NCBI GenBank assembly: GCA_934168305.1
Contig: CAKPNF010000001.1
Location: 69,923-133,922 of the forward strand
Origin: an uncultured Clostridia bacterium
GTDB taxonomy: Bacteria; Bacillota; Clostridia; TANB77; CAG-508
Length of the DNA stretch: 64,000 bases
Direction of reading: 5' to 3'
The notes under the pieces are model-generated. The model was not told the DNA's origin and did not search any database. It was given only the letters and a program-made list of their open reading frames with translations. Below, piece by piece: positions 5,329 to 25,278 of the stretch. Position 1 is the stretch's first letter; each line of letters opens with the position of its first letter. The translations under genes and the position numbers were made by a program.

Positions 5329-5844
5329 ATGGTATTTAGTATTTTAGCATTATTAGCAGTGTGTATTAGTATATGTATTAAAGATAGAAAAAAATCATTA
5401 TATGTTCAATCATTAAACTGCTTTTTTGAAGCAATATATGATTTTTTAATATCTGCTTTTACAGGCGCAATTTTAAGTATAATAAATTTAATAAGGACTT
5501 TTATATTTATAAATAAAAATAAATTTAGTAAATCTGTATATTTAATAATACTATTTATTTTTGAAGGAATAATTATGATAAATTGTTATTTTTCATGGAC
5601 AGGGTGGGTTTCGCTATTACCAACAATTGGTTCAATGATTAGATCATATTGTCTATGGCAATCAAATATGAAATTAGTTAGAATATCTGGAATAACAACA
5701 GGAATTTTATACGGCTCTTATTATATTTATTACCATAGTTGGTTCATGGTATTAGGTGATTTTATTTTATTACTTACAGGAATATACACACTTTACAAAA
5801 ATGATATAAGGAGGAAAAGTAACAATGAAGTTATATGTAATTAG
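5329..5844 (+). CDS. hypothetical integral membrane protein
   Basis: 171 aa with 4-5 hydrophobic helices. No recognisable catalytic motif. Confidence 0.35.
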   Translation: MVFSILALLAVCISICIKDRKKSLYVQSLNCFFEAIYDFLISAFTGAILSIINLIRTFIFINKNKFSKSVYLIILFIFEGIIMINCYFSWTGWVSLLPTIGSMIRSYCLWQSNMKLVRISGITTGILYGSYYIYYHSWFMVLGDFILLLTGIYTLYKNDIRRKSNNEVICN

Positions 5845-6364
5845 ACATGGAAACACAGATAGTAATAGATTAGATATATATAATGGAAAATTATTAAATG
5901 AAGATATAAATAATATTGGAATAAAACAAGCACAGGAAGCATCTAAAAAAATTAAAAATTTAAATTTAGATTTGATTATTTGTTCACCACTTTTAAGAAC
6001 AAGACATACCTGTGATATTATAAATTCTAATAAGATAAAAGTAATATATGATGATCGAATAGAAGAAAGAAATTGTGGAGTTTTAACAAATACGAAAATC
6101 GATAATTTTTATTATACGGAATATTGGAATTATTATTCTAAAGTTAAAATCGATAATTTAGAAACAGTTCCAGAATTATTTAAAAGGGTTAATTTATTTT
6201 TAGATGAAATCAAGAAAAAATATAGTGGTCAAAATATACTTTTAGTAACACATGGTGGTGTAGCTAGAGCAATCCATTTTTATTTTAATGAATTGCCAGA
6301 AGATGGACAGGTGGAAAAATATTTGCCAGATAATTGTGAAATAAGAGAATATAGTTTTAATTAA
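5825..6364 (+). CDS. histidine phosphatase family protein (phosphoglycerate mutase-like)
   Basis: 179 aa. N-terminal LYVIRHGNT RHG catalytic motif. C-terminal LLVTHGGV. Confidence 0.8.
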   Translation: MKLYVIRHGNTDSNRLDIYNGKLLNEDINNIGIKQAQEASKKIKNLNLDLIICSPLLRTRHTCDIINSNKIKVIYDDRIEERNCGVLTNTKIDNFYYTEYWNYYSKVKIDNLETVPELFKRVNLFLDEIKKKYSGQNILLVTHGGVARAIHFYFNELPEDGQVEKYLPDNCEIREYSFN

Positions 6365-6552
6365 TTTAAATAAAAATAGATATATGTATAATACACATTC
6401 AACCATTAAGAGTGTTTATTATGTAGATATAAAAAGCAACTATTCATAATTAACGAACACGGCATGTGGAGTGTGTAGCAGTGCTACATCTAAAAGATTA
6501 TATCTAAATTTGAAGATGTATGATTTAGAAATAGTTAAGAAAGGAATAAAAC

Positions 6553-7101
6553 ATGGGAAAAGTTTTAAAAATAAGAGAAGTAGGAGATCCTATTCTTCAA
6601 AAAAAATGTGATGAAATAGATATAAAGAACATAAATAGAGAAATTTTAGACATCATAGAAGATTTAAAAGCAACATTGGAATTCGGTACAGGACTAGGCG
6701 TAGCCGCACCGCAAATAGGAGTAAATAAGAGAATAATTGTAGTAGGGGCTAAAAAAGAAAACATAAAATATAATGATGCAGAAGAAATACCAATAACTGC
6801 AATGATAAATCCAATTTGGAAAAAAATATCAGAAGATACTGACATACAATATGAAGGATGCATGAGTGTTCCAGTAATTAGGGGAAAAGTAGAAAGATAT
6901 AAAAATATAGAATTAACTTATTTTAACGAAAATGGAGAAAAAATTGTAAGACAAGTGAATGGATTTTTTGCAAGACTTGTTCAACATGAATGTGACCACT
7001 TAGATGGTATTGTATTTTTAGAAAAAGTAAAAGAACATAATGGTTTTGCAACAGTTGATAATATAAATAAATATAATTTAAGATATAAAGAAAGAATTTA
7101 G
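6553..7101 (+). CDS. def: peptide deformylase
   Basis: 182 aa. Motifs GLGVAAPQIG, EGCMSVP, QHECDHLDG (HExxH). Confidence 0.9.
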   Translation: MGKVLKIREVGDPILQKKCDEIDIKNINREILDIIEDLKATLEFGTGLGVAAPQIGVNKRIIVVGAKKENIKYNDAEEIPITAMINPIWKKISEDTDIQYEGCMSVPVIRGKVERYKNIELTYFNENGEKIVRQVNGFFARLVQHECDHLDGIVFLEKVKEHNGFATVDNINKYNLRYKERI

Positions 7102-7103
7102 AC

Positions 7104-7328
7104 ATGAAAATTTATAATATTAAACCAGAAGATTATAAAATAAAAATAGTTATGAAAGGTGAAAATATGAAATTACCTACAAGTATAGAAAATAGACTAA
7201 ATGAAAACATTGTAGAAAAAGCAAGAAACAATATGTTAACGAAATTATTTGTTTCTATTCAGATAATGACCCATAGTAGAAATCAAATTTTCACTTTTCA
7301 AAACTATACAGATTTATTTTTGAAATAA
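7104..7328 (+). CDS. hypothetical small protein
   Basis: 74-aa ORF abutting the def stop. No conserved motif recognised. Could be non-coding. Confidence 0.2.
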   Translation: MKIYNIKPEDYKIKIVMKGENMKLPTSIENRLNENIVEKARNNMLTKLFVSIQIMTHSRNQIFTFQNYTDLFLK

Positions 7329-7369
7329 AATTTTTAAGTCAAAAAAATAAAAAAATTATATAAATACTT

Positions 7370-7415
7370 GTCGGAAAGTCTCGTAAATGATATAATATTT
7401 ACGAGACTTTCCGAC
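7370..7415 (+). promoter_or_regulatory. 19-bp perfect inverted repeat (GTCGGAAAGTCTCGTAAAT / ATTTACGAGACTTTCCGAC) enclosing a sigma-A-like promoter: -35 TTGTCG (7368-7373), 17-nt spacer, -10 TATAAT (7391-7396). Probable AbiEi autoregulatory operator.
   Basis: Read directly from the sequence. Lies 15 nt upstream of the abiEi RBS. AbiEi antitoxins are known to autorepress through promoter inverted repeats. Confidence 0.6.
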
Positions 7416-7429
7416 AAAGGAGAAAAAAG

Positions 7430-8023
7430 ATGGATAATATAGAAAGAATTGAAAAATTATTAAAAAAGAATAATGGAATTATAACAACAAGTGAGGTTGA
7501 AAAAATAGGAATTAATAGCAGAGTTTTAACAAGGATGATAGAAAAAGGAATAATAGAAAGAGTTGCAAGAGGAATTTATATAAGTACTGATACATTAGAA
7601 GATAAATATTTTATTACACAAGCTATTTGTAAAAAAGGAATATTCTCGCATGAAACCGCTTTATATTTTCATGACTTGTGTGATAGAACACCAATAAAAT
7701 ATCAATTAACCATACCAAGTTATTATAATCATACACTTATAAAAAATAAAAATTATGAATTCTTTTATTTAAAAGAAGAATTGTATGAAGTTGGTATAAC
7801 AGAAATGATAACACCGTATGGAAACAAAATAAGAGTATATGATTTAGAAAGAACAATTTGTGATATTATTAGAAACAAAAAAAGAATAGAAATAGCATTA
7901 TTTACAGATGCAATGAAAAGATATGCAGAAAGAAAAGATAGAAACTCAATTAGATTACACAAATATGCGAAATTATTTAATATTGAAGATGAGATAAGAA
8001 AATATTTGGAGGTGTTGCTATGA
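7430..8023 (+). CDS. abiEi: type IV toxin-antitoxin system AbiEi family antitoxin (wHTH)
   Basis: 197 aa. N-terminus IEKLLKKNNGIITTSEVEKIGINSRVLTRMIEKGIIERVARGIY matches the AbiEi_4 domain. 4-nt overlap (ATGA) with the downstream toxin gene. Confidence 0.8.
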   Translation: MDNIERIEKLLKKNNGIITTSEVEKIGINSRVLTRMIEKGIIERVARGIYISTDTLEDKYFITQAICKKGIFSHETALYFHDLCDRTPIKYQLTIPSYYNHTLIKNKNYEFFYLKEELYEVGITEMITPYGNKIRVYDLERTICDIIRNKKRIEIALFTDAMKRYAERKDRNSIRLHKYAKLFNIEDEIRKYLEVLL

Positions 8024-8868
8024 TTGCTAAAAATAGAGCACAATTAAAAGCATGGATAAAAAAAGTGTCATCAAAAGTTGACGTAAATGAAAATATTATT
8101 TTACAAAACTACATGCTAGAAAGATTATTGGAAAGAATTTCAGTATCAGATTACAAATATAAATTTGTATTAAAAGGTGGAATGTTAATAACCGCTATAG
8201 TTGGAATAGATATGAGAAATACATTGGATATGGATACGACAATAAAAGGATTTGATTTAGAAAAAGACAACCTAGAAAATATATTAAATGAAATATTCAA
8301 TATAGATTTAGATGATGGAGTTACTTTTGAATTTACAAATATAAAGGAAATAAGACAAGAAGACGAATATGGAGGATATAGAGTTTCATTAAATGCTAAA
8401 TTTGACAAATTAGTTGTACCAATGAAATTAGATATAACAACAGGAGATGTTATTGTACCTAAAGAAGTAAATTATAAATTTGGTTTGATGTTTGAAAATC
8501 GTTCTATAGAAATACTTGCATATAATATGGAAACTGTAATAGCAGATAAATTTGAAACAATTATATCAAGAAATGTTGATACAACTAGAGCAAGGGATTT
8601 TTACGATATATATATACTTTGGACTACACAGTCACAAAATTTTAATAAGGAATTATTAGGACAAGCGATTGTAGAAAAATTTAAATATAGAGAATCTACA
8701 GACAAATTAAACAATATAGATGAGATAATGGGAGTTATAAAAGAAAGTGATGCTTTAAAAGAACACTGGAAGAATTACCAGTCTAAATTTAGTTATGCAG
8801 AAGATATTAGCTATGAAGATACAATAGAAGTGTTAGAAAAAATAATAAATTTATTAAGACAGAAATAA
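8020..8868 (+). CDS. abiEii: nucleotidyltransferase AbiEii/AbiGii toxin family protein (DUF1814)
   Basis: 282 aa. LKGGMLITAIVGIDMRNTLDMDTTIKGF, the GG..R.T.DxD nucleotidyltransferase signature. Translationally coupled to abiEi. Confidence 0.8.
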   Translation: MIAKNRAQLKAWIKKVSSKVDVNENIILQNYMLERLLERISVSDYKYKFVLKGGMLITAIVGIDMRNTLDMDTTIKGFDLEKDNLENILNEIFNIDLDDGVTFEFTNIKEIRQEDEYGGYRVSLNAKFDKLVVPMKLDITTGDVIVPKEVNYKFGLMFENRSIEILAYNMETVIADKFETIISRNVDTTRARDFYDIYILWTTQSQNFNKELLGQAIVEKFKYRESTDKLNNIDEIMGVIKESDALKEHWKNYQSKFSYAEDISYEDTIEVLEKIINLLRQK

Positions 8869-8913
8869 ATTTTTGTAATTAATAAAAAAATTCATGAAAA
8901 AGAATGAAGGGTT

Positions 8914-9414
8914 ATGGAAAATAATTATATTGAATTAGATTGGGATTTAGTTGAAAAAATATATGTTGATAAAGCAAAAATACTAAAGAGAATTGCATAT
9001 AAAAGAGTTCATAATATAGAAGTTGCAGAGGATATTGTGCAAAATACAATGGAATCAATCTGCAAAATAGTAAATAAAAATAATAGAATATACAATTTGG
9101 ATGCATGGATAAATACAATATTAAAATATAGATGGATAGATGTTTATAGAAAAAACAATTCTATACAGTATTTTTCTAATGATGTTATAGAAAATTGTTT
9201 GATAGAGGAAGAGATAGATACAATTGAAAATATAAATTTATATCATGCATTAAAAGATTTGGAAGAATTGGATATGAAATTTATTATATATAAATTTATT
9301 TATGGCTTTAACAATACAGAAATTTCTAGAATTTTTGGATGTTGTAGTCAAACAGTAACAAGGAAAATAAATAAAGCATTGGAAATAATGAGAAACAAAT
9401 TAAGAATAGAGTAA
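8914..9414 (+). CDS. sigma-70 family (ECF-like) RNA polymerase sigma factor, no adjacent anti-sigma
   Basis: 166 aa. Region 2 VAEDIVQNTMESI and RWIDVYRKN. Region 4.2 HTH NTEISRIFGCCSQTVTRKINKALEIMRNKL. Confidence 0.75.
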   Translation: MENNYIELDWDLVEKIYVDKAKILKRIAYKRVHNIEVAEDIVQNTMESICKIVNKNNRIYNLDAWINTILKYRWIDVYRKNNSIQYFSNDVIENCLIEEEIDTIENINLYHALKDLEELDMKFIIYKFIYGFNNTEISRIFGCCSQTVTRKINKALEIMRNKLRIE

Positions 9415-9439
9415 AAGAAACAAAAAATAGGAGGAGAAT

Positions 9440-12400
9440 ATGTCATTTGAAGCAGGGGGAAGAACAGACAAAGCAGGAAATAGATTTGAAATAAGATATT
9501 TTATATTACAATTATTAAAAGTAATAGAAGAAGAAATAAGAAGTGCAACATTAGAGGCTTTGGGTGATGATGAAAAAGGTACAGATATTTGGATTGAAAA
9601 TAAAAATGGAACAAGAGAAAGTCAACAATGCAAAGGAAGATATGGAAACAATGATAATTGGAATTTTTCTGCCATGGATCAATACGAAATTTTTAAAAAT
9701 TGGAAATATCAATTAGATAGAGATAATAACTTTTTCGTTAGTTTAGTATCTCCAATTTCATTTATAGTTTTTGAAGACCTAATAAAAAGAGCTAAAAATA
9801 CAAGTGATAATCCAAGAGACTTTTATGAAAACCAGATAAAAAAGTCTGATGATAAAATGACAAATTGTTATAGTAATTATTGCAAAAGAATGAAATTAAA
9901 TCCAGAAGATGAAAGAGATTTGATTCAGAGTATTGATTATTTAAATAGAACGAATTATCATCAAATACCAGATGAAGAACTAAAAAATATTATTTTGAAT
10001 AAAATAAAATATTTATTTATAGGTGATACTGAAATAATATATAATTGTTTTGTTGAACTGGTGCTAGATGAAAATATCTTAGCACAAAAAATAGATGTTA
10101 TATATCTAGATAATTTTATAAAATCCAAAAATATAATGTTTAGAAATTTATCGAAAGATGATAGAATTCTTCCAAGAATAACAGAATTAAACAATGAATA
10201 TAATCAGTTTTTTTCTCCAATTAATGGTAATTTGATAGAAAGAGAAGAATTTACAAAATGCAAGGAATTAATTGAAGAAGGTAAATCTATAATTATTCAT
10301 GGAAAAGCAGGATATGGAAAAAGTGGTATTACACAATTAATTATTCAGTATTGCGAACAAAAAACAATACCTCATATTGCAATAAAATTAGATAAAAGAG
10401 TTCCAAGAGACAATGTAGAAGAATGGAGTAAAAAACTAGGATTGCCAACATCAATAGGATTTTGCATAGATAGTATTTCTAAAGATAAAAATGCAGTGAT
10501 AATTTTAGATCAGTTAGATGCGTTAAGGTGGACACAGTCACATTCTAGAGATGCGTTATTAGTATGTACAGAGTTAATAGAACAAATAAAAAAACTTAAT
10601 TTTGAAAGACAAAATAAAATTTCGATTATTTTTGTGTGTAGAACCTATGATTTGGAAAATGATAATAGCATTAAATTGTTGTTTAAAGATGAGAGAAAAG
10701 AAAAAATTTGGAAAAAAATAAATGTAGAAAAATTCTCGAAAGAGATGCTAAAATCATTAATAGGAACGGAATATGCTGGGTTCTCAAAAAAATTACAAGA
10801 ATTACTTAGAATTCCAAGCAACTTGTACATATGGAGCAAATTAGATAAAAATCAAAGATATGATGATTGTAATACTACTAATATGTTAATACAAAAATGG
10901 TGGAGTCAATTATTGCAAAAAGCAAATGAATTAGAAATTAGTGAAAAAGAATTACAAGAATGTAAGAATAATATAGTAACAGTATTAGATAAGGCAGGAA
11001 GAATAAGCATATTAAGAAAATTTTTAGATGTTAATGCTAGTGCTTTAGATTATTTATATTCAAATGGTTTCTTAATTATAGAGAATAATATTGTATCATT
11101 TACGCATCAAAGTTTATTAGACTATTTCTTAGAGGAAAATATGTTATATAAATATCAAAATGGAAACAATATTGAAGATATAATTGGAGACAAATCAAAA
11201 CAAATACCTGCAAGAAGATATCAAATTCAAATGCTTTTGGAAGACTTAGCTAATAGTGATACACAAGATTTTATTTGTGTTGGAAGAGAATTATTGGAAT
11301 CTAATAATATAAGATTCTATATAAAATATGTGTTTTTTGAAGTCTTGGGACAAATTACAGATATTGATTATGACATAGAACAATTTATTTTAGAATATTA
11401 TGACAATCAAATGTATGGTGTTCATGTCCTAAATAATGTCATATATTCGCATCCTCAATATGTCAGAATATTAATTAAAAATGGAATTTTTGACATTTGG
11501 ATGAAAGATGATAAAAAGAAAGATATATGTATTAATTTATTAGGAAGTATTAAAGAAAAATATTGTGTGGAAGATGTAAAATTCATAGAAAAGTATTTAT
11601 TCAATTGTGAAGAAGATGATAAAAAAATATACAGGTGTTTTAATTATGATATAAATGACGACATAGATGAAATGTTTGAATTAAGAATGAAACTATATAA
11701 TAAATATCCGGAATTAAGTGATGAATACATTAATTTAAAGAAAATGTTACAAGACAATGAATTAAGAGCAATAAGATTAATAAAATTTTGGCTTGATAAT
11801 AAAGTAAAGAACAAAAACAAGAGAATATATAAATATGAAGAAGAATTGATTACAGAAGAATCAGATATTATTGTTAATAACGATGAAAAAATAATTGAAA
11901 TATTATTGCCATGCATACCAAAAGAAACTAAAACGCATTTTGGAGATTGGACAGGTAGACATAGATTTTCTATTGGAATAGAAAGAGCTTGTGTTGAATT
12001 AATAAAAAAAGCAAATGCTAATTTAATAAAACGAAATCCAGATAGATTTTTAGAAATATATGAAATATATATGGGAAAAGGTTATCCAATATTTAATGAA
12101 TTTATACTGAATGGATTAGAAAGGTTACCGGTAAAATATAGTGACTATGTTATTGGATATTTATGTGCTGATTTTAAAAAGAATATTTTTGATGAAAGTA
12201 GTGGAAATGGTGATGAGTTGTTATTAACCAAAAATATCCTGAAAAAACATTCAGTTAAATGCAGTAAAGAAGTTTTTGAAAACTTAGAAGAAAAAATATA
12301 TTTTTATCAAGAAGATAAAATAGTCGAAATATATAAGAGGATTCGAGAATATAAATTAAATTATACATCTAAAAGAATGTATTGGGATTGCTGGGGAAAT

Positions 12401-13984
12401 GTACAAGTTGAACTTTTGCCATATTTACCATATCAAAGATTAAATTATAAAACACGACAATTAATGAAAGTGCTTAATCGCAAATTTAAAAAAGGTAGCA
12501 ATTATTACAAGTACGATAATGGGCATAGTGGTTCAGTATGGTCTCCAATAAGTAATAAAAATTTAAGTAATAAACAATGGATAAGACTATTTTCAAATAA
12601 AAAATTAGAAAATTTAAAGAGACATACTTGGAAAGAAGTAACCGGTGGCTTTATAGAAAGTAGTATGAGAGAGTTTACCAATAGTTTTAATCAAGCAGTT
12701 TCTAATGAACCAATAAGGGTGATTAATTTAGTTTTATCTAATTCAAATATCATATTGAATGAATTTGTAGATGCACTATATAGTGGATTACAATCAAGCG
12801 AAAACATAGATAAAGTTCCAATAGATCTATTAGAAAAAGTGTTTAAAGTATTTCCGTGTGATAATGAATCGCAGAGAGCTAATTGTATCTGTTGGATAAT
12901 TTATAAAAGAAAGAATATAAATTGGTCTCAGAATACATTAAATTTATTAAAGAATATAGCAATAAATCATAAAGATCCAATAATGGGGAAGCCTAATATA
13001 AAAAATGATAAAGATAAAGAAATTAAAAGCATAGATATGTTACAAAGTAATTCACTTAATTGTACAAGAGGTGAGGCAGCACAAGCAATAGGACATCTTT
13101 TATGGGAAAACATAGAATTATTTGAAGAATTTAAAGAAACAATCCAATTATTAAGTGAAGATATTAATCCTGTAGTGAGATTTGCAAGTTTACACTGCTT
13201 ATTGCCTGCATATAATATTCAAAGGGATTGGGCGAGAGAAAAAATTTTAAATTTATTTGAAACAGATATTAGACTAGTATCTTTTTGGCGTGCAAAAGAT
13301 ATATTATTCTTTTCGTATGATAAAGAAAAGGATAGAGTACTAAAAATAATAGAAAATTGCTATTATTCTGAGGATAAAAAATTAAAGGAAATAGGAAGTT
13401 ACTGTGTAGTAGAAATGTATATATTAAAAAATGAATTTTCATATATAATGAATGAGATTGATTCGATGGATGAAAATCAAATTAAGGCCATTTTGCATAT
13501 GGCAATAAATTATTTTAATAATGTTAAATATAATCAAAAAGTAAAAAATATTATTTCTAGATTTAAAGAAAAAAATTATGATATAGAACAATCTATTTGT
13601 AGATTATTTTATGATAATTTAATAGATTTGAATAGGGACAAAGAATTTCTAAAAGATATTATGAATAGTACTGCAGGAAGACGTTCTATACATTCTTTTA
13701 TTCATTATATTGATGAAAATGCAGTATCTATATTAGATTTTAAAGAAATTATTATAGAATCAATAAACTCTATTTTAGAAAATAGTGAATTAGAAAAAGA
13801 GAACATTTACTATTATGGTGATGAATTATCAAAATTAATTGTAGGTTTATATGATGAAACTGTAGGTAAAAAACAAAGAGAGATGAAAAATCTTTCAGAA
13901 AAATGTTTAGATATCTGGGATGAAATGTTTGAAAAACAAATCGGATCAATTAAGAAATTAAGCAGGGATATTTTGGATAGATAG
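9440..13984 (+). CDS. 1514-aa Avs/NLR-like candidate defense protein: N-terminal DUF4297/Cap4-like PD-(D/E)xK nuclease signature + STAND-like P-loop NTPase + ~1100-aa helical repeat region
   Basis: N-terminus FEAGGRTDKAGNRFEIRYFILQLLKV ... EALGDDEKGTDIWIENK ... ESQQCKG fits the DUF4297 consensus (GG..G.fe..y..lL.LL / E.DD / QxK). Walker A IIIHGKAGYGKSG at nt 10301-10327. Walker B VIILDQLDAL about 65 aa later, then sensor-1-like IIFVCRT. The remaining ~1100 aa is repeat-like and helical (by composition). RBS GGAGG 8 nt upstream. Confidence 0.6.
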   Translation: MSFEAGGRTDKAGNRFEIRYFILQLLKVIEEEIRSATLEALGDDEKGTDIWIENKNGTRESQQCKGRYGNNDNWNFSAMDQYEIFKNWKYQLDRDNNFFVSLVSPISFIVFEDLIKRAKNTSDNPRDFYENQIKKSDDKMTNCYSNYCKRMKLNPEDERDLIQSIDYLNRTNYHQIPDEELKNIILNKIKYLFIGDTEIIYNCFVELVLDENILAQKIDVIYLDNFIKSKNIMFRNLSKDDRILPRITELNNEYNQFFSPINGNLIEREEFTKCKELIEEGKSIIIHGKAGYGKSGITQLIIQYCEQKTIPHIAIKLDKRVPRDNVEEWSKKLGLPTSIGFCIDSISKDKNAVIILDQLDALRWTQSHSRDALLVCTELIEQIKKLNFERQNKISIIFVCRTYDLENDNSIKLLFKDERKEKIWKKINVEKFSKEMLKSLIGTEYAGFSKKLQELLRIPSNLYIWSKLDKNQRYDDCNTTNMLIQKWWSQLLQKANELEISEKELQECKNNIVTVLDKAGRISILRKFLDVNASALDYLYSNGFLIIENNIVSFTHQSLLDYFLEENMLYKYQNGNNIEDIIGDKSKQIPARRYQIQMLLEDLANSDTQDFICVGRELLESNNIRFYIKYVFFEVLGQITDIDYDIEQFILEYYDNQMYGVHVLNNVIYSHPQYVRILIKNGIFDIWMKDDKKKDICINLLGSIKEKYCVEDVKFIEKYLFNCEEDDKKIYRCFNYDINDDIDEMFELRMKLYNKYPELSDEYINLKKMLQDNELRAIRLIKFWLDNKVKNKNKRIYKYEEELITEESDIIVNNDEKIIEILLPCIPKETKTHFGDWTGRHRFSIGIERACVELIKKANANLIKRNPDRFLEIYEIYMGKGYPIFNEFILNGLERLPVKYSDYVIGYLCADFKKNIFDESSGNGDELLLTKNILKKHSVKCSKEVFENLEEKIYFYQEDKIVEIYKRIREYKLNYTSKRMYWDCWGNVQVELLPYLPYQRLNYKTRQLMKVLNRKFKKGSNYYKYDNGHSGSVWSPISNKNLSNKQWIRLFSNKKLENLKRHTWKEVTGGFIESSMREFTNSFNQAVSNEPIRVINLVLSNSNIILNEFVDALYSGLQSSENIDKVPIDLLEKVFKVFPCDNESQRANCICWIIYKRKNINWSQNTLNLLKNIAINHKDPIMGKPNIKNDKDKEIKSIDMLQSNSLNCTRGEAAQAIGHLLWENIELFEEFKETIQLLSEDINPVVRFASLHCLLPAYNIQRDWAREKILNLFETDIRLVSFWRAKDILFFSYDKEKDRVLKIIENCYYSEDKKLKEIGSYCVVEMYILKNEFSYIMNEIDSMDENQIKAILHMAINYFNNVKYNQKVKNIISRFKEKNYDIEQSICRLFYDNLIDLNRDKEFLKDIMNSTAGRRSIHSFIHYIDENAVSILDFKEIIIESINSILENSELEKENIYYYGDELSKLIVGLYDETVGKKQREMKNLSEKCLDIWDEMFEKQIGSIKKLSRDILDR

Positions 13985-14036
13985 TATAGATAATTGAGAT
14001 GGAGGATATATCTTAAAAAAAGAAGGGGGAATATAT

Positions 14037-15116
14037 ATGTTAAAAGACTTATGTTTTGAAATAATACAAACATGCCCTAATAAATGCAAATTTTGTTCTT
14101 CCAATTCCTCAAAAGACAAAAAAACAATAATAACATTAGAAGATTTTAAGAAAACAGTTATGTATTTTATTACTCATGGTGGAATTGGAGAAATATCAAT
14201 TTCAGGAGGAGAACCTTTTTTACATCCAGATTTATTCGAAATGATAAAGTTTTGTAAAGACAATGGAATTAGAACAGTTATATTCACTAGTGGAATAAAA
14301 AGAGCACCTGCAATACCAGAAAAAACGATAGAATATATAAAAAATAAATGTAAAAAAGATTTAGAAGAAATAGAAGAACATGAACCATGGAATGAAAGAC
14401 TAAAAAGAAATGTGAAGGCATATTATAAAAGAATGATTAGTCCAGGAGAATTTACTTCACTAACAAGGCAAGAACTAGAAAAAATAAAAGAATTAGGAGT
14501 AGATAAAATCGTATTTGATTGGCAAGCATTAGATGAAAATATTGATAATGAGTTAATGGGAAGAAAAGCATTAAATACATATCTAATGGATTCTTTGATT
14601 AGAGCAAGCATTGTTGGGTTAAATGTAGATGTTCATTTTATTCCTATGAAGCCAAATTATAAGCAATTTCCAGATATAATAGAATGTTTACAAATAGCAA
14701 AAGTAAAAAATATTAGTATTTTAAATTTTGTACCACAAGGTAGAGGATTAGAAAACAAAAGAGAACTAATGTTAAACGAAACAGAGTTAAGAGAATTTGG
14801 AGAAATATTAAAAAAAGAAAAAGAGCATTATAGCGGTAACATAAGAATTGGAATTCCTTTAAATGGAAAAATATCTCATTTATGCACAGCTGGAACTGAA
14901 AAATTGGATATAAAATATGACGGAACAATACTACCATGTCCAGCATTCAAGGAAATGAGCGTAGAGAAAATGGAAAAGTACGGTATAAAATTACATAGTA
15001 TATATGAGGATTTGGAAAAAGTAGTTATACATGAAGGAAAAAGAAAATCGCCATTATGTAAGCAAGTATATGGATTTAAAGGAAAGTTGACAGAAAGTGA
15101 AGAGATAGAGTTTTAA
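14037..15116 (+). CDS. radical SAM protein, with a possible auxiliary Cys cluster
   Basis: 359 aa. CPNKCKFC (Cx3Cx2C) at nt 14073-14095. GGEPFL glycine-rich SAM motif. Three further Cys in the C-terminal 80 aa (HLC, LPCP, PLCK). 52 nt downstream of the giant ORF, same strand. Confidence 0.8.
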   Translation: MLKDLCFEIIQTCPNKCKFCSSNSSKDKKTIITLEDFKKTVMYFITHGGIGEISISGGEPFLHPDLFEMIKFCKDNGIRTVIFTSGIKRAPAIPEKTIEYIKNKCKKDLEEIEEHEPWNERLKRNVKAYYKRMISPGEFTSLTRQELEKIKELGVDKIVFDWQALDENIDNELMGRKALNTYLMDSLIRASIVGLNVDVHFIPMKPNYKQFPDIIECLQIAKVKNISILNFVPQGRGLENKRELMLNETELREFGEILKKEKEHYSGNIRIGIPLNGKISHLCTAGTEKLDIKYDGTILPCPAFKEMSVEKMEKYGIKLHSIYEDLEKVVIHEGKRKSPLCKQVYGFKGKLTESEEIEF

Positions 15117-15128
15117 GGAGGAATAGTT

Positions 15129-15299
15129 ATGAAAATATTAATTGGAACAAAAAATCCAGGAAAAATAGAAGGAGCAAAACAAGCATTTGAAAAATATTTT
15201 AACAATGTAGAAATAGAAGGAATACCAGTAAAATCAAATGTAGGAGACCAACCAGTAAACGAAGAAATACAAATTCTTTGGGAGAATGGATTGATATAA
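15129..15299 (+). pseudogene. rdgB: truncated N-terminal fragment (57 aa) of a non-canonical purine NTP pyrophosphatase (RdgB/Ham1 family)
   Basis: MKILIGTKNPGKIEGAKQAFEKYF..VEIEG matches the Ham1 N-terminus (MKxxxATxNxGKxxExxxxL). The ORF stops after 57 codons, and the remaining ~140 aa of the family is absent. Has an RBS (AGGAGG). Confidence 0.5.
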
Positions 15300-15962: not shown

Positions 15963-17498
15963 ATGATAAAGAATAATATAAGAGATTACCAACAAGAAAT
16001 AATTAATGTTATTATAAAAAAATTACAACAAAATTCAAAAGAAATATTTATAGAAATGCCATCAGGAACAGGAAAAAGTATAGTCATTGAAGAAGTAATT
16101 AAGTTATTAGAAGCTAAAAGCAATATTTTAATAATCAATAAAAACAAAATAGCAGAACAACAATTTAAGGAACAATTTAAAAATTATAAAAACGTGACAA
16201 TAGAAAATTACTATAATTATCAGTCAATAATAGATAAATTTGATTATATTATATTTAGCGATATGGAAGAATTGTCTGAAGAAAAATATAAAAATATATA
16301 TCAAATATTTAAAAAAGCAAGAATAATAGGATTTTGTAATAAAAGTCAAAGAATAAGTAAGCGAGGGGAATGGTTAGATAAAAAAACTATAGATTATTCC
16401 ATAACTATTCAACAGATAATTAATGACGGCTATATGAATCCAAATCAATTAGAAAATCAATTTCAATATTTTATCGAAGAACTCTTAAAGAAATTAAGAT
16501 TTATTAATTTAGAAAAAGAAAGAGCTTTAAAAACTAAAAAAGGAATAATGAGAGTAGATTTTATTATTCATAATAATGAAAAAGAAATAATTGTAGAAAC
16601 TAAGGACTACAGGAGTAAATTTGTAGAAGGTACTATCATTAATCGAGCAATAGAACAATTAGATTATTATAAGAGTATATTGCAAGAAGAAAATAAAAAT
16701 GATATAGAAGCCATATTAATTGTGAATTGCTATGTTTCAGAAAAAATAAAGGAAAGTACTTATAATGAAAAGAAAATTTTGATTTTAGATATTTCTAATT
16801 TAATATATTTATCACAAAAAAATGAAGAATTGATGAAAAATCTAATAGAAAGTACACAATATAATATTTATGATATAGTTCCAAAAGAACCTATAAAGAT
16901 GGAATTGCTAAAATTACAAAAGAAAGAAAATATAAGCAAGAGTGTTGAAAATGAAATAGATAGTGCAAAAAAATTTATACAAAGATTAGAAAATATGAAA
17001 TATGGTAACAAAGAAAAGAATGACAAAGAATATGAAAAATTATGTGTACAAATTATTAGATATTTATTTGAAACAGAGTTTACAAGAATATTAGAACAAA
17101 GTAGTACAGAAGATAAAATGTTCAGAATGGATTTAGTTTGTGGATTAAAAGGAACTTCAGAATTTTGGAAAATACTTATTCAACATTACAATACAAGATT
17201 TGTTGTTTTTGAATTTAAAAATTATAAAGAAGAAATTGATCAAAATCTTATTTATATAACTGAAAAATACCTATATAATGCAGTTTTAAGAAACGTAGCA
17301 ATTATTGTATCAAGGAAAGGTTTTTCATATAATGCTCATAAGGCTGCAATAGGAGTATTAACCGAAAATGGAAAATTAATTATAGAAATAAAAGATGATG
17401 ATTTAATTACAATGTTAAGAATGAAAGCTGATGGACAAGATGCATCAGATTATTTATTAAATATATTAGAAGAATATTTAATATCTATTAGTAAATAA
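15963..17498 (+). CDS. hypothetical protein with degenerate SF2-helicase-like N-terminus and two PD-(D/E)xK nuclease-like motifs (candidate defense protein)
   Basis: 511 aa. RDYQQEII + EMPSGTGKS (Q-motif/Walker A) and DYIIFSDMEE (weak motif II). MRVDFIIHNNEKEIIVETKDY (D..ExK). RMDLVCG...FVVFEFKNY (second D..ExK). Confidence 0.45.
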   Translation: MIKNNIRDYQQEIINVIIKKLQQNSKEIFIEMPSGTGKSIVIEEVIKLLEAKSNILIINKNKIAEQQFKEQFKNYKNVTIENYYNYQSIIDKFDYIIFSDMEELSEEKYKNIYQIFKKARIIGFCNKSQRISKRGEWLDKKTIDYSITIQQIINDGYMNPNQLENQFQYFIEELLKKLRFINLEKERALKTKKGIMRVDFIIHNNEKEIIVETKDYRSKFVEGTIINRAIEQLDYYKSILQEENKNDIEAILIVNCYVSEKIKESTYNEKKILILDISNLIYLSQKNEELMKNLIESTQYNIYDIVPKEPIKMELLKLQKKENISKSVENEIDSAKKFIQRLENMKYGNKEKNDKEYEKLCVQIIRYLFETEFTRILEQSSTEDKMFRMDLVCGLKGTSEFWKILIQHYNTRFVVFEFKNYKEEIDQNLIYITEKYLYNAVLRNVAIIVSRKGFSYNAHKAAIGVLTENGKLIIEIKDDDLITMLRMKADGQDASDYLLNILEEYLISISK

Positions 17499-18245: not shown

Positions 18246-19943
18246 ATGAAAACAAAAGAAAATGGTGTAACGTTAATAGCATTAGTAATTACAATAATAT
18301 TAATCCTTATTTTAGCTTCTTTAGGAACGACAATAGGAACTGAAACAATCAATTCAACAGCATTTACACAATTTAAAGCTGAACTTAAAATAATGCAAGA
18401 TAAGGTAAATGAGTTGAATCAAGAAAATAAGATTGAAAATGGAAGAGATTTAACAAAAGATGAACAAGAAAAAATTTTTAATAATCAAGAAACATCAGAC
18501 ATATCAGACATTATATTTAATAGCGTAACAACAGATGAAGAAAAAAATAATATAAAAAATGGATTTAAGTATTTAACAAAAGATAATATAAGTGAAAAAT
18601 TTGGGTTAGATAGTATTAAAAGGGATTATATTATAAATGTTGAGTATAGATATGTTATTTTTCCGTACGGATTTGAATATGAAGGAAAAAAATATTATAT
18701 GATAGATCAAATTGATGGTGAAATATATAATGTTCGTTATCATAATAAAAATGATAAATACGGTGGAAATGGTGAAAATGGAAAAAATTTTAATGTAAAT
18801 GTGACAAATGAAAAAAATAGAAGCAAAATTGAGATTACTAATATCAACTATAATGGATATGTAGATAAATGGCAGGTTAAATATAGACTTGAAGGAAATT
18901 CTTATTGGGAAACAAGTAATGATTTAACTTTTTATATAAAAAAAGAAGGAACATATACTATAAAAGTTGTACATGGAGATGAAATAGATTTAGGAGAGCA
19001 GAAAATAATGGTATTATATGATGGAACAATATCAGAAAAAGTTAGAAACGATGTAATAAAAATAGGGGATTATGTAAATTACACACCAGATGCAGTAAGC
19101 ACAACAGACGAAAAATATACAAATCTAATTTCAGAATTAGGAACTTATTCAGGAAGTACAGAAAATAATACAAGCACATTAATACAAGAAAATTTAAATT
19201 GGAGAGTATTGGATGTCGTAGATGGAGAAGTAAGATTAATAAGTGAAGTGCCAACAACAAGCGTAATAAAACTGTACGGGTATAATGGATATAATAATGC
19301 TGTTTATTTAATAGATAAAGCTTGTAGTACACTATATAGTAAGTCTGGATATATAGATAAGGTTCAAAATTTAAAAATAGAAGATTTAGAAAAGTATATG
19401 AAAAAAATTCCAGCAAAAGATGAATTACCATATTCACCACCTAGTCCAAGCACATATTACCCTAGCATATTAATACAAGAGAAAAATCAAACAGTAATAC
19501 CAGATGACGATACAATTCAATCTGAAACTATATTGGACCTAAGCGAACAAACAGAACCAATAAATCAAACAAAAGCAAAGAAAGTAAACTCTTGGAAAAT
19601 AAAGAAAACAAATTATTGGGTTTTATCTTCAAAAGTAGAAGATTTTAAACAAACTGAATATTATAATTTATTTATATTAAATGAAGAAAAAAACAATTAC
19701 TACACATCATATTGGATGTCATCACGTTGTGTGAATTGTGATTCGGATAATGCTGCATTTAGAGTACGTTGTATAAATTCTGGTGATATAAAAGCCGAAG
19801 CAACTTATGGATCACTTAATAATTCATTCACACTTACAAAATCCTTTAGACCTATTATAACTTTAAATTCAGATGTACAAATAGATGCAACAAACACAGA
19901 AAAAGACGGAACAACAGCTGCCAATGCATACATATTAAAATAA
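18246..19943 (+). CDS. large protein with type IV prepilin-like N-terminal signal (pseudopilin/minor-pilin-like), orphan
   Basis: 565 aa. MKTKENG|VTLIALVITIILILIL resembles a class III signal (G-1, hydrophobic +1..+20, no E+5). The remainder is Thr/Asn/Tyr-rich and beta-like. No pilB/C/D genes nearby. Confidence 0.45.
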   Translation: MKTKENGVTLIALVITIILILILASLGTTIGTETINSTAFTQFKAELKIMQDKVNELNQENKIENGRDLTKDEQEKIFNNQETSDISDIIFNSVTTDEEKNNIKNGFKYLTKDNISEKFGLDSIKRDYIINVEYRYVIFPYGFEYEGKKYYMIDQIDGEIYNVRYHNKNDKYGGNGENGKNFNVNVTNEKNRSKIEITNINYNGYVDKWQVKYRLEGNSYWETSNDLTFYIKKEGTYTIKVVHGDEIDLGEQKIMVLYDGTISEKVRNDVIKIGDYVNYTPDAVSTTDEKYTNLISELGTYSGSTENNTSTLIQENLNWRVLDVVDGEVRLISEVPTTSVIKLYGYNGYNNAVYLIDKACSTLYSKSGYIDKVQNLKIEDLEKYMKKIPAKDELPYSPPSPSTYYPSILIQEKNQTVIPDDDTIQSETILDLSEQTEPINQTKAKKVNSWKIKKTNYWVLSSKVEDFKQTEYYNLFILNEEKNNYYTSYWMSSRCVNCDSDNAAFRVRCINSGDIKAEATYGSLNNSFTLTKSFRPIITLNSDVQIDATNTEKDGTTAANAYILK

Positions 19944-23661: not shown

Positions 23662-23709
23662 AAATATGTAATGGATAACAATGAACGAAAATAAGTGAAA
23701 GGAGAGTAT

Positions 23710-25278
23710 ATGCAAAGAAAGAAAAAAAATCTACTAGAAAAAATCGTTAAAAAAGATTACAATAATGAGTTAGAAAAAATTTTAGAAGAAAAACAGTTTG
23801 ACGAAAATGTAAAAAATACTCTCCTAGGTATTTTATATAAAATAGAAGCAGCATATAAAGATTTAGAAACAGTAAAAAAAGACATAGAAACTAAAGAAGA
23901 ATATATATCAAATATACTAGATATTATGAAAAATGATTGTGATTCAATCAAAATAATTAAGATGAATGATGAAGAAAATAAAATACCTCAAAATAAAACA
24001 TATTTAATAAACAAAGAAAAAAAAGAAATAATAGCATATCCAATTGAAAGAAAATTATTATATTCAATAGCCAAAATAGGAAAAAAAGACAAAATAGTAA
24101 AGGATGATTATTTTATAATTAACAAAACGCTATCAGAATTAATAAATGTAGGAGATAACATTAATATAGTAGAACCATTAAGAGACTTTAATGGATACTC
24201 ATGGACAAGCATACCACAAGAAATAGAAAGTATCGACCATAATCTTATTTACCAAAATTTAAGAATTATAGTGGGACATAAATTCTTAAATAAATGGATA
24301 AAAAATAATGAATTTATAATCGATTATTTTGATTTATTTAAAGAAATTTTAGAAGAAAAATATGGAAAAGAAAACAAAAATAAATTTATAGATATATTAT
24401 CAAAAATATCAATTTTATTAAGTATGAAATTTGATAGTATTGAAAAAGAAAAATTATTTAAAGTAAAATATGAAATCGAAGAAAAACTAGAGGAGACACA
24501 GAACAGAGAATTATTTATTGAGAATATAACAAATAAAAAAATTGATATCTCAAATAGAATTAAAAGAATAGATACTATTATTAATGACAAAGAATTGCTA
24601 AAAAAAGAATATATAAAAAGAAATGAAAATTTAGAATTGGAAAATAAAATATTTAGTATAAGAATATTATCACAAATGATGGAAAAAGAAAGAGATAAAT
24701 ATTTTAAAGAATTAGAAGAATTAAATAAATTAATAAACCCACAAAATTTTATAAAATACAAAAAGGAAATTGAAGAAAAGTATAAATATTTAAAATTACT
24801 TGATACAGAAAATATAGATGAAGAATTAGAAAAATCAAAAATTCAATTACAAAAAATATTCTTAGACTTTATAAAAGTTGATATAAAAAAAGCAGAAAAT
24901 AAACAAGAAATAGAAAAGATAATATATAATTTTAGGTATTATTTATTATTACCATATAATTATGAGAAATATATACAAAATGTAGAAAAATTACAAAAAC
25001 AAATAAATCAAGTTGGAGAATTATTAATAAATAAAGCAATAGAATTAAAAGTTATACATGAGATATCAAAAGACAAGTATACAAATTATGAAATTTTAAA
25101 AAATATATTTAATATTAGAATAATAAAATTAGAAGATTCATATTTGAAAATAACTAAGGAAAAAGACAAATATTTTGTTAAAATATTTGATGAAAATATT
25201 TTTGAAGAAAAAATAGAAATATCAAAACCAAAAGATTTAGAAATAAAACTAAACAAAAAAATACCAATATGGGAGTGA
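23710..25278 (+). CDS. hypothetical K/E-rich coiled-coil protein
   Basis: About 522 aa from ATG 23710 (RBS AAAGGAGAG). No recognisable domain. Confidence 0.35.
   Translation: MQRKKKNLLEKIVKKDYNNELEKILEEKQFDENVKNTLLGILYKIEAAYKDLETVKKDIETKEEYISNILDIMKNDCDSIKIIKMNDEENKIPQNKTYLINKEKKEIIAYPIERKLLYSIAKIGKKDKIVKDDYFIINKTLSELINVGDNINIVEPLRDFNGYSWTSIPQEIESIDHNLIYQNLRIIVGHKFLNKWIKNNEFIIDYFDLFKEILEEKYGKENKNKFIDILSKISILLSMKFDSIEKEKLFKVKYEIEEKLEETQNRELFIENITNKKIDISNRIKRIDTIINDKELLKKEYIKRNENLELENKIFSIRILSQMMEKERDKYFKELEELNKLINPQNFIKYKKEIEEKYKYLKLLDTENIDEELEKSKIQLQKIFLDFIKVDIKKAENKQEIEKIIYNFRYYLLLPYNYEKYIQNVEKLQKQINQVGELLINKAIELKVIHEISKDKYTNYEILKNIFNIRIIKLEDSYLKITKEKDKYFVKIFDENIFEEKIEISKPKDLEIKLNKKIPIWE

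Follow-up and report, generated by a model that had tools for sequence, protein, structure and literature searches.

The subject of this analysis is an open reading frame (ORF) at positions 9440-13984 of a 64,000-nucleotide stretch of DNA from an uncultured Clostridia bacterium (contig CAKPNF010000001.1, forward-strand positions 69,923 to 133,922), the whole of which is referred to as the window. The gene encodes a protein of 1514 amino acids (aa), which very probably represents an Avs7-type single-gene abortive-infection nuclease from a Gram-positive branch of these antiviral STAND (Avs) proteins; its closest solved relative is Avs7 of Salmonella enterica (SeAvs7). By analogy with that protein we predict its defence activity, oligomeric state, DNA substrate and trigger. 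An earlier note on this DNA had recognized a nuclease, a STAND-type NTPase and a helical sensor in the order typical of Avs proteins; this order is confirmed, and the clade, which had been left open, can now probably be named as Avs7.

The locus and its conserved motifs

The reading frame runs without interruption over 1514 codons plus the stop codon; the block that holds it varies between strains, in a chromosome of low GC content (about 25%). The ORF and the features assigned to it are as follows (nt, nucleotides; AF2, AlphaFold2).

9440-13984, + strand: complete ORF, ATG to stop, 1514 aa, probable Avs7-type antiviral STAND protein; homologues are full-length at 1511-1520 aa
9429-9436, + strand: ribosome-binding site AGGAGGAG, read from the sequence, its GGAGG core ending 5 nt before the ATG
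9440-10219, + strand: Cap4-like PD-(D/E)xK nuclease effector domain, residues 1-260 (AF2 model, Foldseek, domain-only hhalign)
9584-9634, + strand: predicted nuclease active-site strands, with D49 at 9584-9586 and Q63-C64-K65 at 9626-9634
10220-11161, + strand: STAND NTPase module, residues 261-574, with nucleotide-binding, helical and winged-helix subdomains (profile match to SeAvs7 residues 268-557)
10301-10327, + strand: Walker A P-loop GKAGYGKSG, residues 288-296, with K294 (invariant across 97 homologues; pairs with GLPGSGKT of SeAvs7)
10502-10519, + strand: Walker B ILDQLD, residues 355-360, with D357 (pairs with VIDSLD of SeAvs7)
10640-10642, + strand: sensor-1 arginine R401 in VCRTYD (at least 90% conserved in 97 homologues; pairs with ACRDFD of SeAvs7)
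11105-11107, + strand: winged-helix histidine H556 in SFTHQSLLD (invariant; pairs with H545 of SeAvs7 in FGHQTLLD)
11162-12394, + strand: sensor, N-terminal part, residues 575-985, alpha-solenoid (all-helical AF2 model)
12395-13981, + strand: C-terminal part of the sensor, residues 986-1514, with homology to the C-lobe of SeAvs7 (hhalign, HMMER)
13949-13978, + strand: conserved C-terminal helix, residues 1504-1513 (helix H940-949 of the AF2 model)

Neither the full protein nor any of four segments cut from it matched a family above threshold in Pfam, NCBIfam or PHROGs. Conservation was assessed in two sets of homologues, namely 30 full-length sequences of 47-70% identity and a 97-sequence family alignment that reaches down to 25% identity and was drawn from matches to a sensor profile. 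Invariant among the 30 are G7, D10, K11, G13, N14, E17, E39, D49, E60, Q63, C64 and K65 near the N-terminus, and G288-G296 (except position 292), D357, Q358, D360, R401 and H556 in the NTPase. In the broader set G291, G293, K294, D357, Q358, D360 and H556 are kept by all 97 sequences, and Q63, C64, K65 and R401 by at least 90% of them. This pattern of conservation indicates that the motifs are under selection, beyond what chance would produce.

The N-terminal nuclease domain

The N-terminus had been read in the earlier note as a DUF4297/Cap4-like nuclease, and the peptides on which that reading was built are present at residues 5-28 (AGGRTDKAGNRFEIRYFILQLLKV), 39-55 (EALGDDEKGTDIWIENK) and 60-66 (ESQQCKG). 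As regards the fold, the claim is upheld. An AlphaFold2 model of residues 1-260, computed with 50 homologues supplied, is of high confidence (mean predicted local distance difference test score, pLDDT, 87.4; predicted template modelling score, pTM, 0.82). Its core has the order alpha-beta-beta-beta-alpha-beta, and two successive strands carry D49 and Q63-x-K65; these are strands 2-3 of the model (E50-53 and E59-64). When this model was compared with the Protein Data Bank (PDB) by Foldseek, all 18 top matches (E<=1e-3) were Cap4-type PD-(D/E)xK nucleases, each with a probability of 1.00, about 250 aligned columns and a TM (template modelling) score of 0.43-0.58. They include SeAvs3 (8DGC; E=3e-6, TM 0.57), HamA (8ZUE), LmuA (9NXX, 9HR5) and Cap4 (6VM5, 7YIB, 6WAM, 6VM6). 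The part of the claim that refers to the Pfam family did not hold, as residues 1-260 gave no Pfam match even at E<=5, PF14130 (DUF4297) included, and none was found in the full-length scan either.

The D49...Q63-C-K65 arrangement aligns to D...QCK in the Cap4 domain of the solved SeAvs7, and the acidic and QxK residues predicted to be catalytic (E39, D49, E60, Q63 and K65) belong to the positions that are invariant in the 30 homologues. Judged by its modelled fold, the domain is a Cap4-type PD-(D/E)xK nuclease, with catalysis predicted. Pfam scans of P0291 and six further family members, whose N-termini are shorter or longer, revealed no alternative effector domains.

The STAND NTPase module

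Profile comparisons identify residues 261-574 as a STAND NTPase homologous to the corresponding module of SeAvs7. The Walker A motif GKAGYGKSG is found at nt 10301-10327, exactly where the earlier note had placed it, and the Walker B motif ILDQLD, put there at about 65 residues downstream, has its D357 63 residues after K294. The residues of SeAvs7 that bind ATP-Mg or ADP, K291/T292, D358, R395 and H545, align to K294/S295, D357, R401 and H556. In SeAvs7, D358 coordinates Mg-ATP and R395 contacts ATP (Lee et al. 2026, PMC13581612).

Family models match this region below threshold: over the P-loop region nSTAND3 reaches 18-19 bits (cut-off 27.2), NPHP3_N 20.7 (24.8) and NACHT 14.9 (26.7), accompanied by weak AAA matches, and several homologues carry a precomputed PF20720 annotation. 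The best match in the defence database PADLOC is PDC-M54A (E=8.9e-16), which pairs residues 266-563 with positions 303-604 of a 1621-position model; a second, weak match to the same model (E=0.011) falls in the C-terminal sensor.

A Cap4-like nuclease joined to an ATPase might also be taken for a Lamassu-like system or one of the ABC/SMC type, where an SMC-family ATPase is the partner of the Cap4 nuclease, and the resemblance of the nuclease domain to LmuA speaks for it. The spacing of 63 residues between Walker A and Walker B, and the alignment of the NTPase to a STAND module up to and including the winged-helix histidine, speak against it, as do the lack of an LmuB- or SMC-like gene in the neighbourhood and the negligible score of the Pfam model ABC_tran (E=0.06-0.13). 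This explanation is scarcely credible, and it was ruled out on the strength of the STAND classification and of the missing SMC partner in the neighbourhood. The earlier note had likewise preferred STAND over ABC/SMC, and with the SeAvs7 motifs in register and no SMC-like partner nearby, that preference proved correct.

Homology to Salmonella Avs7

SeAvs7 (WP_079981830.1) was described by Lee et al. (bioRxiv January 2026; Nature 29 July 2026, PMC13581612), who solved its structure free and bound to capsid protein and EF-Tu, as an apo form (9N00), a monomeric complex (9N01) and a tetramer (9YIX). The protein consists of a Cap4 nuclease, a STAND NTPase and a bilobed TPR sensor, and it protects Escherichia coli from Drexlerviridae phages (PMC13581612). 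Its trigger is the major capsid protein of the phage, with the response enhanced by host EF-Tu, and upon activation it forms an asymmetric tetramer whose Cap4 domains cleave double-stranded DNA (PMC13581612).

A profile of the 30-member family, searched against all PDB sequences, retrieved this one protein (9N00/9N01/9YIX; 1523 aa, annotated "AAA family ATPase") at E=1.1e-5, with matching pieces that run collinearly from the NTPase to the C-terminus. A profile of the sensor alone was searched against 1.84 billion representative proteins and yielded 1560 matches at E<=1e-3, of which 434 reach E<=1e-30, mostly proteins of 1500-1557 residues in which the sensor begins at about residue 575. With the 97-sequence profile derived from these matches, SeAvs7 was the sole significant match among PDB sequences (E=2.4e-37). 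The first HMMER domain aligned positions 48-642 to SeAvs7 45-626, spanning D...QCK, all NTPase motifs and FxHQxLLD, and the second aligned positions 1087-1482 to SeAvs7 1071-1486 (independent E-value 6.6e-4).

For profile-profile comparison, the SeAvs7 side was represented by 21 full-length proteins taken from 39 SeAvs7-like loci in reference genomes (Kluyvera, Brenneria, Klebsiella, Pectobacterium, Pseudomonas and others), which make up a shallow profile with an effective number of sequences (Neff) of about 2.5. Between the two families hhalign gave a probability of 100% (E=2.2e-39) over 1340 collinear columns, 16-1487 against 9-1486. As a chained alignment may ride on its strongest part, the comparison was repeated on separate pieces. 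The Cap4 domain alone reached 97.8% (E=1e-12, 206 columns), the NTPase alone 99.4% (E=2.6e-21, 290 columns) and the C-terminal part of the sensor alone 98% (E=2e-13, 398 columns); the whole sensor reached 98.3% (E=1.5e-14), with only about 986-1497 aligned, to 980-1507 of SeAvs7. In the reverse direction, a hidden Markov model of the SeAvs7 family finds the sensor-profile members P0363 (3e-18) and P0329 (1e-17), where E-values are scaled to 1.8e9 sequences.

The 1514-aa protein and SeAvs7 share about 19% pairwise identity, and in the sequence comparisons the gap between them is bridged by profiles only. Single-sequence phmmer searches with the distant members P0377 and P0387 found no match among PDB sequences. 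A homologue search with the NTPase fragment of SeAvs7 returned only fragments of at most 507 aa, and a tblastn search of plasmids with the same fragment only cyanobacterial STANDs of about 35% identity, annotated as caspase, pentapeptide-repeat or ATP-binding proteins. A protein of Clostridium cagae (WP_105177080.1), the NTPase of which is 52% identical, is listed among the 656 STAND seeds in Table S1 of Lee et al.

The sensor and its possible trigger

The sensor proper takes up the last ~940 residues and is a HEAT/ARM-like solenoid, all-helical in the AF2 model. The earlier note had assigned about 1100 residues to a helical repeat; the helical nature of the C-terminus stands, and the length has to be corrected, since that figure includes the remainder of the NTPase, with its helical and winged-helix subdomains, up to about residue 574. 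One non-helical motif, GHSGSVWSPIS (residues 1028-1038), is common to the C-lobe of SeAvs7. In the family at large, conservation is lower in the sensor parts (mean pairwise identity 0.24) than in the NTPase module (0.35).

The two halves of the sensor differ in how well they can be matched to SeAvs7. While the C-terminal half is homologous to the C-lobe, the N-terminal part alone, compared with the SeAvs7 N-lobe by hhalign against the shallow SeAvs7-side profile, reaches 8.9% (E=0.0037) over 78 columns at its start (about 588-666), and no homology of residues ~670-985 to SeAvs7 could be demonstrated by this method. In the full-length hhalign alignment the N-lobe is collinear with that of SeAvs7, possibly carried by its flanks. 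In SeAvs7, the C-terminal sensor half packs on the NTPase and Cap4 domains and keeps the protein off (PMC13581612), and by analogy the slower divergence of this half in the 1514-aa family plausibly reflects autoinhibitory packing. The terminal helix of SeAvs7 (residues 1511-1521) also has an autoinhibitory role (PMC13581612). Helix 1504-1513, which is flanked by I1501, G1502 and R1514, all invariant in the 30 homologues, may be its counterpart; the helix lies outside the region aligned by hhalign.

At the EF-Tu interface of SeAvs7, the residues Q999, D1003, K1044, H1048 and D1059 were mutated (Lee et al. 2026, PMC13581612). The 21 SeAvs7-like proteins keep four of these five positions (Q, D, H and D), and the K1044 position varies there too. 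In the family of the 1514-aa protein the contact residues are not kept: the five aligned columns, in a part of the alignment where identity is low, are variable (K/N/R, K/E/A, K/Q/N, N/T/S and G/T/A). The lack of conservation at these contacts predicts that the 1514-aa protein is independent of EF-Tu, and from its sequence it is not expected to belong to the EF-Tu-dependent Avs7 clade. EF-Tu use is predicted for only one clade of Avs7, comprising 192 of 1757 clusters (Lee et al. 2026, PMC13581612), and variable contact positions therefore do not exclude membership in Avs7.

These observations bear on the trigger. The protein may descend from the same ancestor as Avs7 and sense another phage protein, for example a portal, terminase or tail protein, through a remodelled N-terminal sensor half; this alternative would depart from a capsid-triggered Avs7 in the sensing step only and would make the family a functionally distinct Avs family. 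It draws on the N-terminal sensor half, for which homology to its SeAvs7 counterpart was not detected, on the EF-Tu contact residues, which are not conserved, on the lower conservation of the sensor parts, and on the diversity reported by Lee et al. (PMC13581612), who distinguish at least 90 sensor clusters with many triggers. A shared trigger is favoured by full-length collinearity, near-identical length and the homologous C-terminal sensor half, and by the finding of Lee et al. (PMC13581612) that an Avs7-type sensor retains capsid recognition even when transplanted to Dsr1; moreover, the failure of the N-lobe comparison may reflect nothing but the shallow profile on the SeAvs7 side. Granted that the protein is of the Avs7 type, a change of trigger is a serious alternative, with chances somewhat short of even.

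Among the sensor-profile matches are proteins of about 960-1020 residues (P0253, P0258, P0280, P0326, P0331, P0358, P0372 and P0380) that consist almost entirely of the sensor, which starts at residues 25-64. They could be products of split genes, assembly fragments or partners of a separate effector.

Genomic context

The genes around the ORF are arranged in the order def, a 74-aa ORF, abiEi, abiEii, an ECF-type sigma factor gene, the 1514-aa gene, a radical SAM/SPASM gene, tsaC and a ResIII-family gene, and the rest of the window holds housekeeping genes such as dxs, ftsK and infB and those for RNase J and a class A penicillin-binding protein. The neighbours that bear on the interpretation are listed here.

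7430-8023: AbiEi (PADLOC 1e-71)
8020-8868: AbiEii (PADLOC 5e-97)
8914-9414, + strand: ECF-type sigma-70 factor, 166 aa (TIGR02937 9e-16; PHROG "RNA polymerase sigma factor" 1e-19)
14037-15116, + strand: radical SAM/SPASM protein, 359 aa, PqqE-like, with viperin-model matches confined to the generic radical SAM core
15129-15299: 56-aa ORF with a fragmentary NTPase_I-T match
15963-17498: 511-aa protein with an N-terminal ResIII/DEAD helicase motif region; its C-terminal part matches phrog_31260 (1.6e-62)

Contigs with an identical TsaC fall into two groups. Five carry the AbiE-sigma-Avs block, and at least seven have an ABC transporter cassette instead, the latter keeping the backbone of radical SAM, TsaC, ResIII and CotF genes. 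In the window, the stretch upstream of the radical SAM gene (5329-14000) encodes YgjV, a histidine phosphatase, Def, AbiE, the sigma factor and the Avs protein; in other strains with an identical TsaC, the same place is taken by the ABC transporter cassette and a 190-aa protein. The site upstream of the radical SAM gene is a variable hotspot. Island-flanking direct repeats were looked for at the variable block, and none were found.

The contexts of homologues differ from one to the next. The 70%-identical homologue directly follows abiEii, with no sigma factor gene, and lies next to a relaxase gene. Others are solitary beside integrase and relaxase genes in a mobilisable element with other defence genes, stand among PIN, AbiEii and DUF3800 genes, are placed between a type I restriction-modification system and McrBC (Paenibacillus sp. 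Y412MC10), or reside among ordinary genes (Sporomusa malonica). As no neighbour is conserved, the gene appears to be a one-gene system that travels in defence islands.

The closest neighbours nevertheless invite the idea that the 1514-aa protein is a component of a multi-gene system, for example one like PDC-M54, together with the sigma factor (8914-9414), the radical SAM/SPASM protein (14037-15116) or both. All three genes share one strand and lie close together, with gaps of 25 nt between the sigma factor gene and the ORF and of 52 nt between the ORF and the radical SAM gene, and the best PADLOC match, PDC-M54A, models a multi-gene candidate. However, neither neighbour recurs beside homologues, and the 70%-identical one is without the sigma factor gene, absent from this position in the related locus L006. 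The radical SAM gene persists in strains devoid of the 1514-aa ORF and the block around it, and is thus part of the backbone rather than a partner. The PDC-M54A match covers the NTPase only, stand-alone SeAvs7-like proteins match that model too, and a PADLOC scan of the neighbouring genes matched no PDC-M54 model. A multi-gene system is very improbable on this evidence, and the comparative context led to the rejection of both the sigma factor and the radical SAM protein as partners.

Similarly, the immediately adjacent sigma factor gene and the occurrence of transcription regulators among STAND NTPases might point to a role outside defence, be it as a housekeeping factor or as a regulator of the MalT/AfsR type, possibly acting with the sigma factor. 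Such a role is contradicted by the nuclease effector, which stands in place of a DNA-binding output domain, by the patchy, strain-variable presence of the gene and its association with mobilisable elements and defence islands, and by the fact that its sole solved homologue is a proven defence protein. The likelihood of a non-defence function is accordingly minimal.

Several features of the neighbourhood merit description in their own right. Just upstream of the sigma factor gene, abiEi and abiEii form a complete AbiE-type toxin-antitoxin/abortive-infection pair with a 4-nt overlap. The adjacency of abiEii and the Avs gene recurs at the locus of the 70%-identical homologue beside the relaxase, and AbiE and Avs hence seem to travel together. 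A perfect inverted repeat of 21 nt (TTGTCGGAAAGTCTCGTAAAT / ATTTACGAGACTTTCCGACAA, with an 8-nt loop) occupies 7368-7417, at a distance of 13 nt upstream of abiEi. It overlaps a sequence that resembles a promoter, TTGTCG-17-TATAAT plus a TG extension, and could be an AbiEi operator or the terminator of the upstream gene. The sigma factor is a candidate island regulator or may be phage-derived.

On the other side, the radical SAM gene and the 56-aa ORF are backbone genes, and no precursor gene for a ribosomally synthesized and post-translationally modified peptide is evident. The 511-aa protein (15963-17498) shows weak matches to NERD and to the PADLOC model PDC-M36A (1e-12), and belongs to the backbone of all strains seen. 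Two further conserved backbone ORFs, at 18246-19943 (565 aa) and 23695-25278 (527 aa), have no Pfam match, and the former is without a PHROG match as well.

A mechanism by analogy

The solved structures of SeAvs7 suggest, by analogy, how the protein might work. At rest, it would be an ADP-bound, autoinhibited monomer, its Cap4 nuclease sequestered by the C-terminal part of the sensor, which would also pack against the NTPase. In an infected cell, the two-part solenoid sensor would clasp a freshly synthesized phage protein, in the likeliest case a major capsid protein of the HK97 fold; provided that the Avs7-type identification is right, the chances that a capsid protein is the trigger are about even. 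Binding would free the NTPase, ATP would replace ADP, and the protein would oligomerize, as SeAvs7 does into a tetramer. The Cap4-like domains would thereby assemble into an active nuclease, and indiscriminate degradation of double-stranded DNA would result in abortive infection.

Significance of the family

Since the architecture and mechanism were published in 2026 (PMC13581612), the gene does not represent a new kind of system. Its identification provides a concrete and testable mechanism for a family of ~1515-residue proteins found in Clostridium (including C. botulinum and C. butyricum), Paenibacillus and Sporomusa, the members of which are named in their sources only "hypothetical protein", "ATP-binding protein" or "AAA ATPase". 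By the sensor profile, this family comprises at least 1560 representative clusters at 50% identity. WP_084573668.1 (Sporomusa malonica) and WP_012819191.1 (Paenibacillus sp. Y412MC10) are among its members.

The 1514-aa protein would be a Gram-positive counterpart to the sole characterized Avs7, with one sensor half conserved and the other not demonstrably so. Such a pattern fits a C-lobe constrained by autoinhibitory contacts and a remainder that evolves with its target. We tentatively put forward, as a possibility that we would not yet favour, that the Gram-positive branch kept the Avs7 chassis, made up of Cap4 nuclease, NTPase and autoinhibitory C-terminal sensor half, and rebuilt the N-terminal sensor half, either for a non-capsid phage protein or for EF-Tu-independent recognition of capsid proteins from Firmicutes phages. 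If true, a rebuilt sensor would exemplify modular re-targeting within one Avs family, and the family would offer a large natural series for mapping the determinants of specificity.

Relation to known defence systems

Individual parts of the 1514-aa protein recur in several defence systems. Cap4 of CBASS (6VM5, 6VM6, 6WAM, 6WAN, 7YIB), which links a DUF4297 nuclease to a SAVED domain, shares the nuclease fold and an active site of the D...QxK type; yet Cap4 is switched by cyclic oligonucleotides through SAVED, whereas the 1514-aa protein has a STAND NTPase and a protein sensor. LmuA (9NXX, 9HR5, 9UXL) and HamA (8ZUE) also adopt the Cap4-like nuclease fold, but work with separate partners, the SMC-like LmuB or the helicase HamB, and no such partner is encoded near the 1514-aa gene. 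The PADLOC model of LmuA is also matched by SeAvs7-like proteins.

PDC-M54A (PDLC04702/04701), the best match in a defence database, agrees with the protein over the NTPase and is likewise matched by 15 of the 21 SeAvs7-like proteins. It differs in that the match extends over no more than about 300 of the model's 1621 positions, and PDC-M54 is an uncharacterized multi-gene candidate for which no describing paper was found. Defence-associated sirtuin 1 (Dsr1) carries an Avs7-type capsid-sensing domain (Lee et al. 2026, PMC13581612) and would therefore be a relative with respect to the sensor, with a SIR2 effector and without a STAND NTPase. The PADLOC model of Dsr1 matches neither the 1514-aa protein at E<=1 nor SeAvs7-like proteins at E<=0.001.

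The antiviral STANDs SeAvs3 and EcAvs4, which sense terminase and portal proteins, follow the same logic, where a phage protein induces a STAND oligomer and, in turn, a tetrameric Cap4 nuclease; the nuclease domain of SeAvs3 (8DGC) is structurally the closest of those solved. The most extensive likeness is to SeAvs7, with which the 1514-aa protein shares the domain order, a near-equal length (1514 versus 1523 aa), a large helical sensor, closed by a short helix that may be equivalent in the two, a nuclease motif and nucleotide-binding residues in register, and an existence as a single-gene system in defence contexts. The two differ in their hosts, which are Proteobacteria for SeAvs7 and Gram-positive bacteria for the 1514-aa family.

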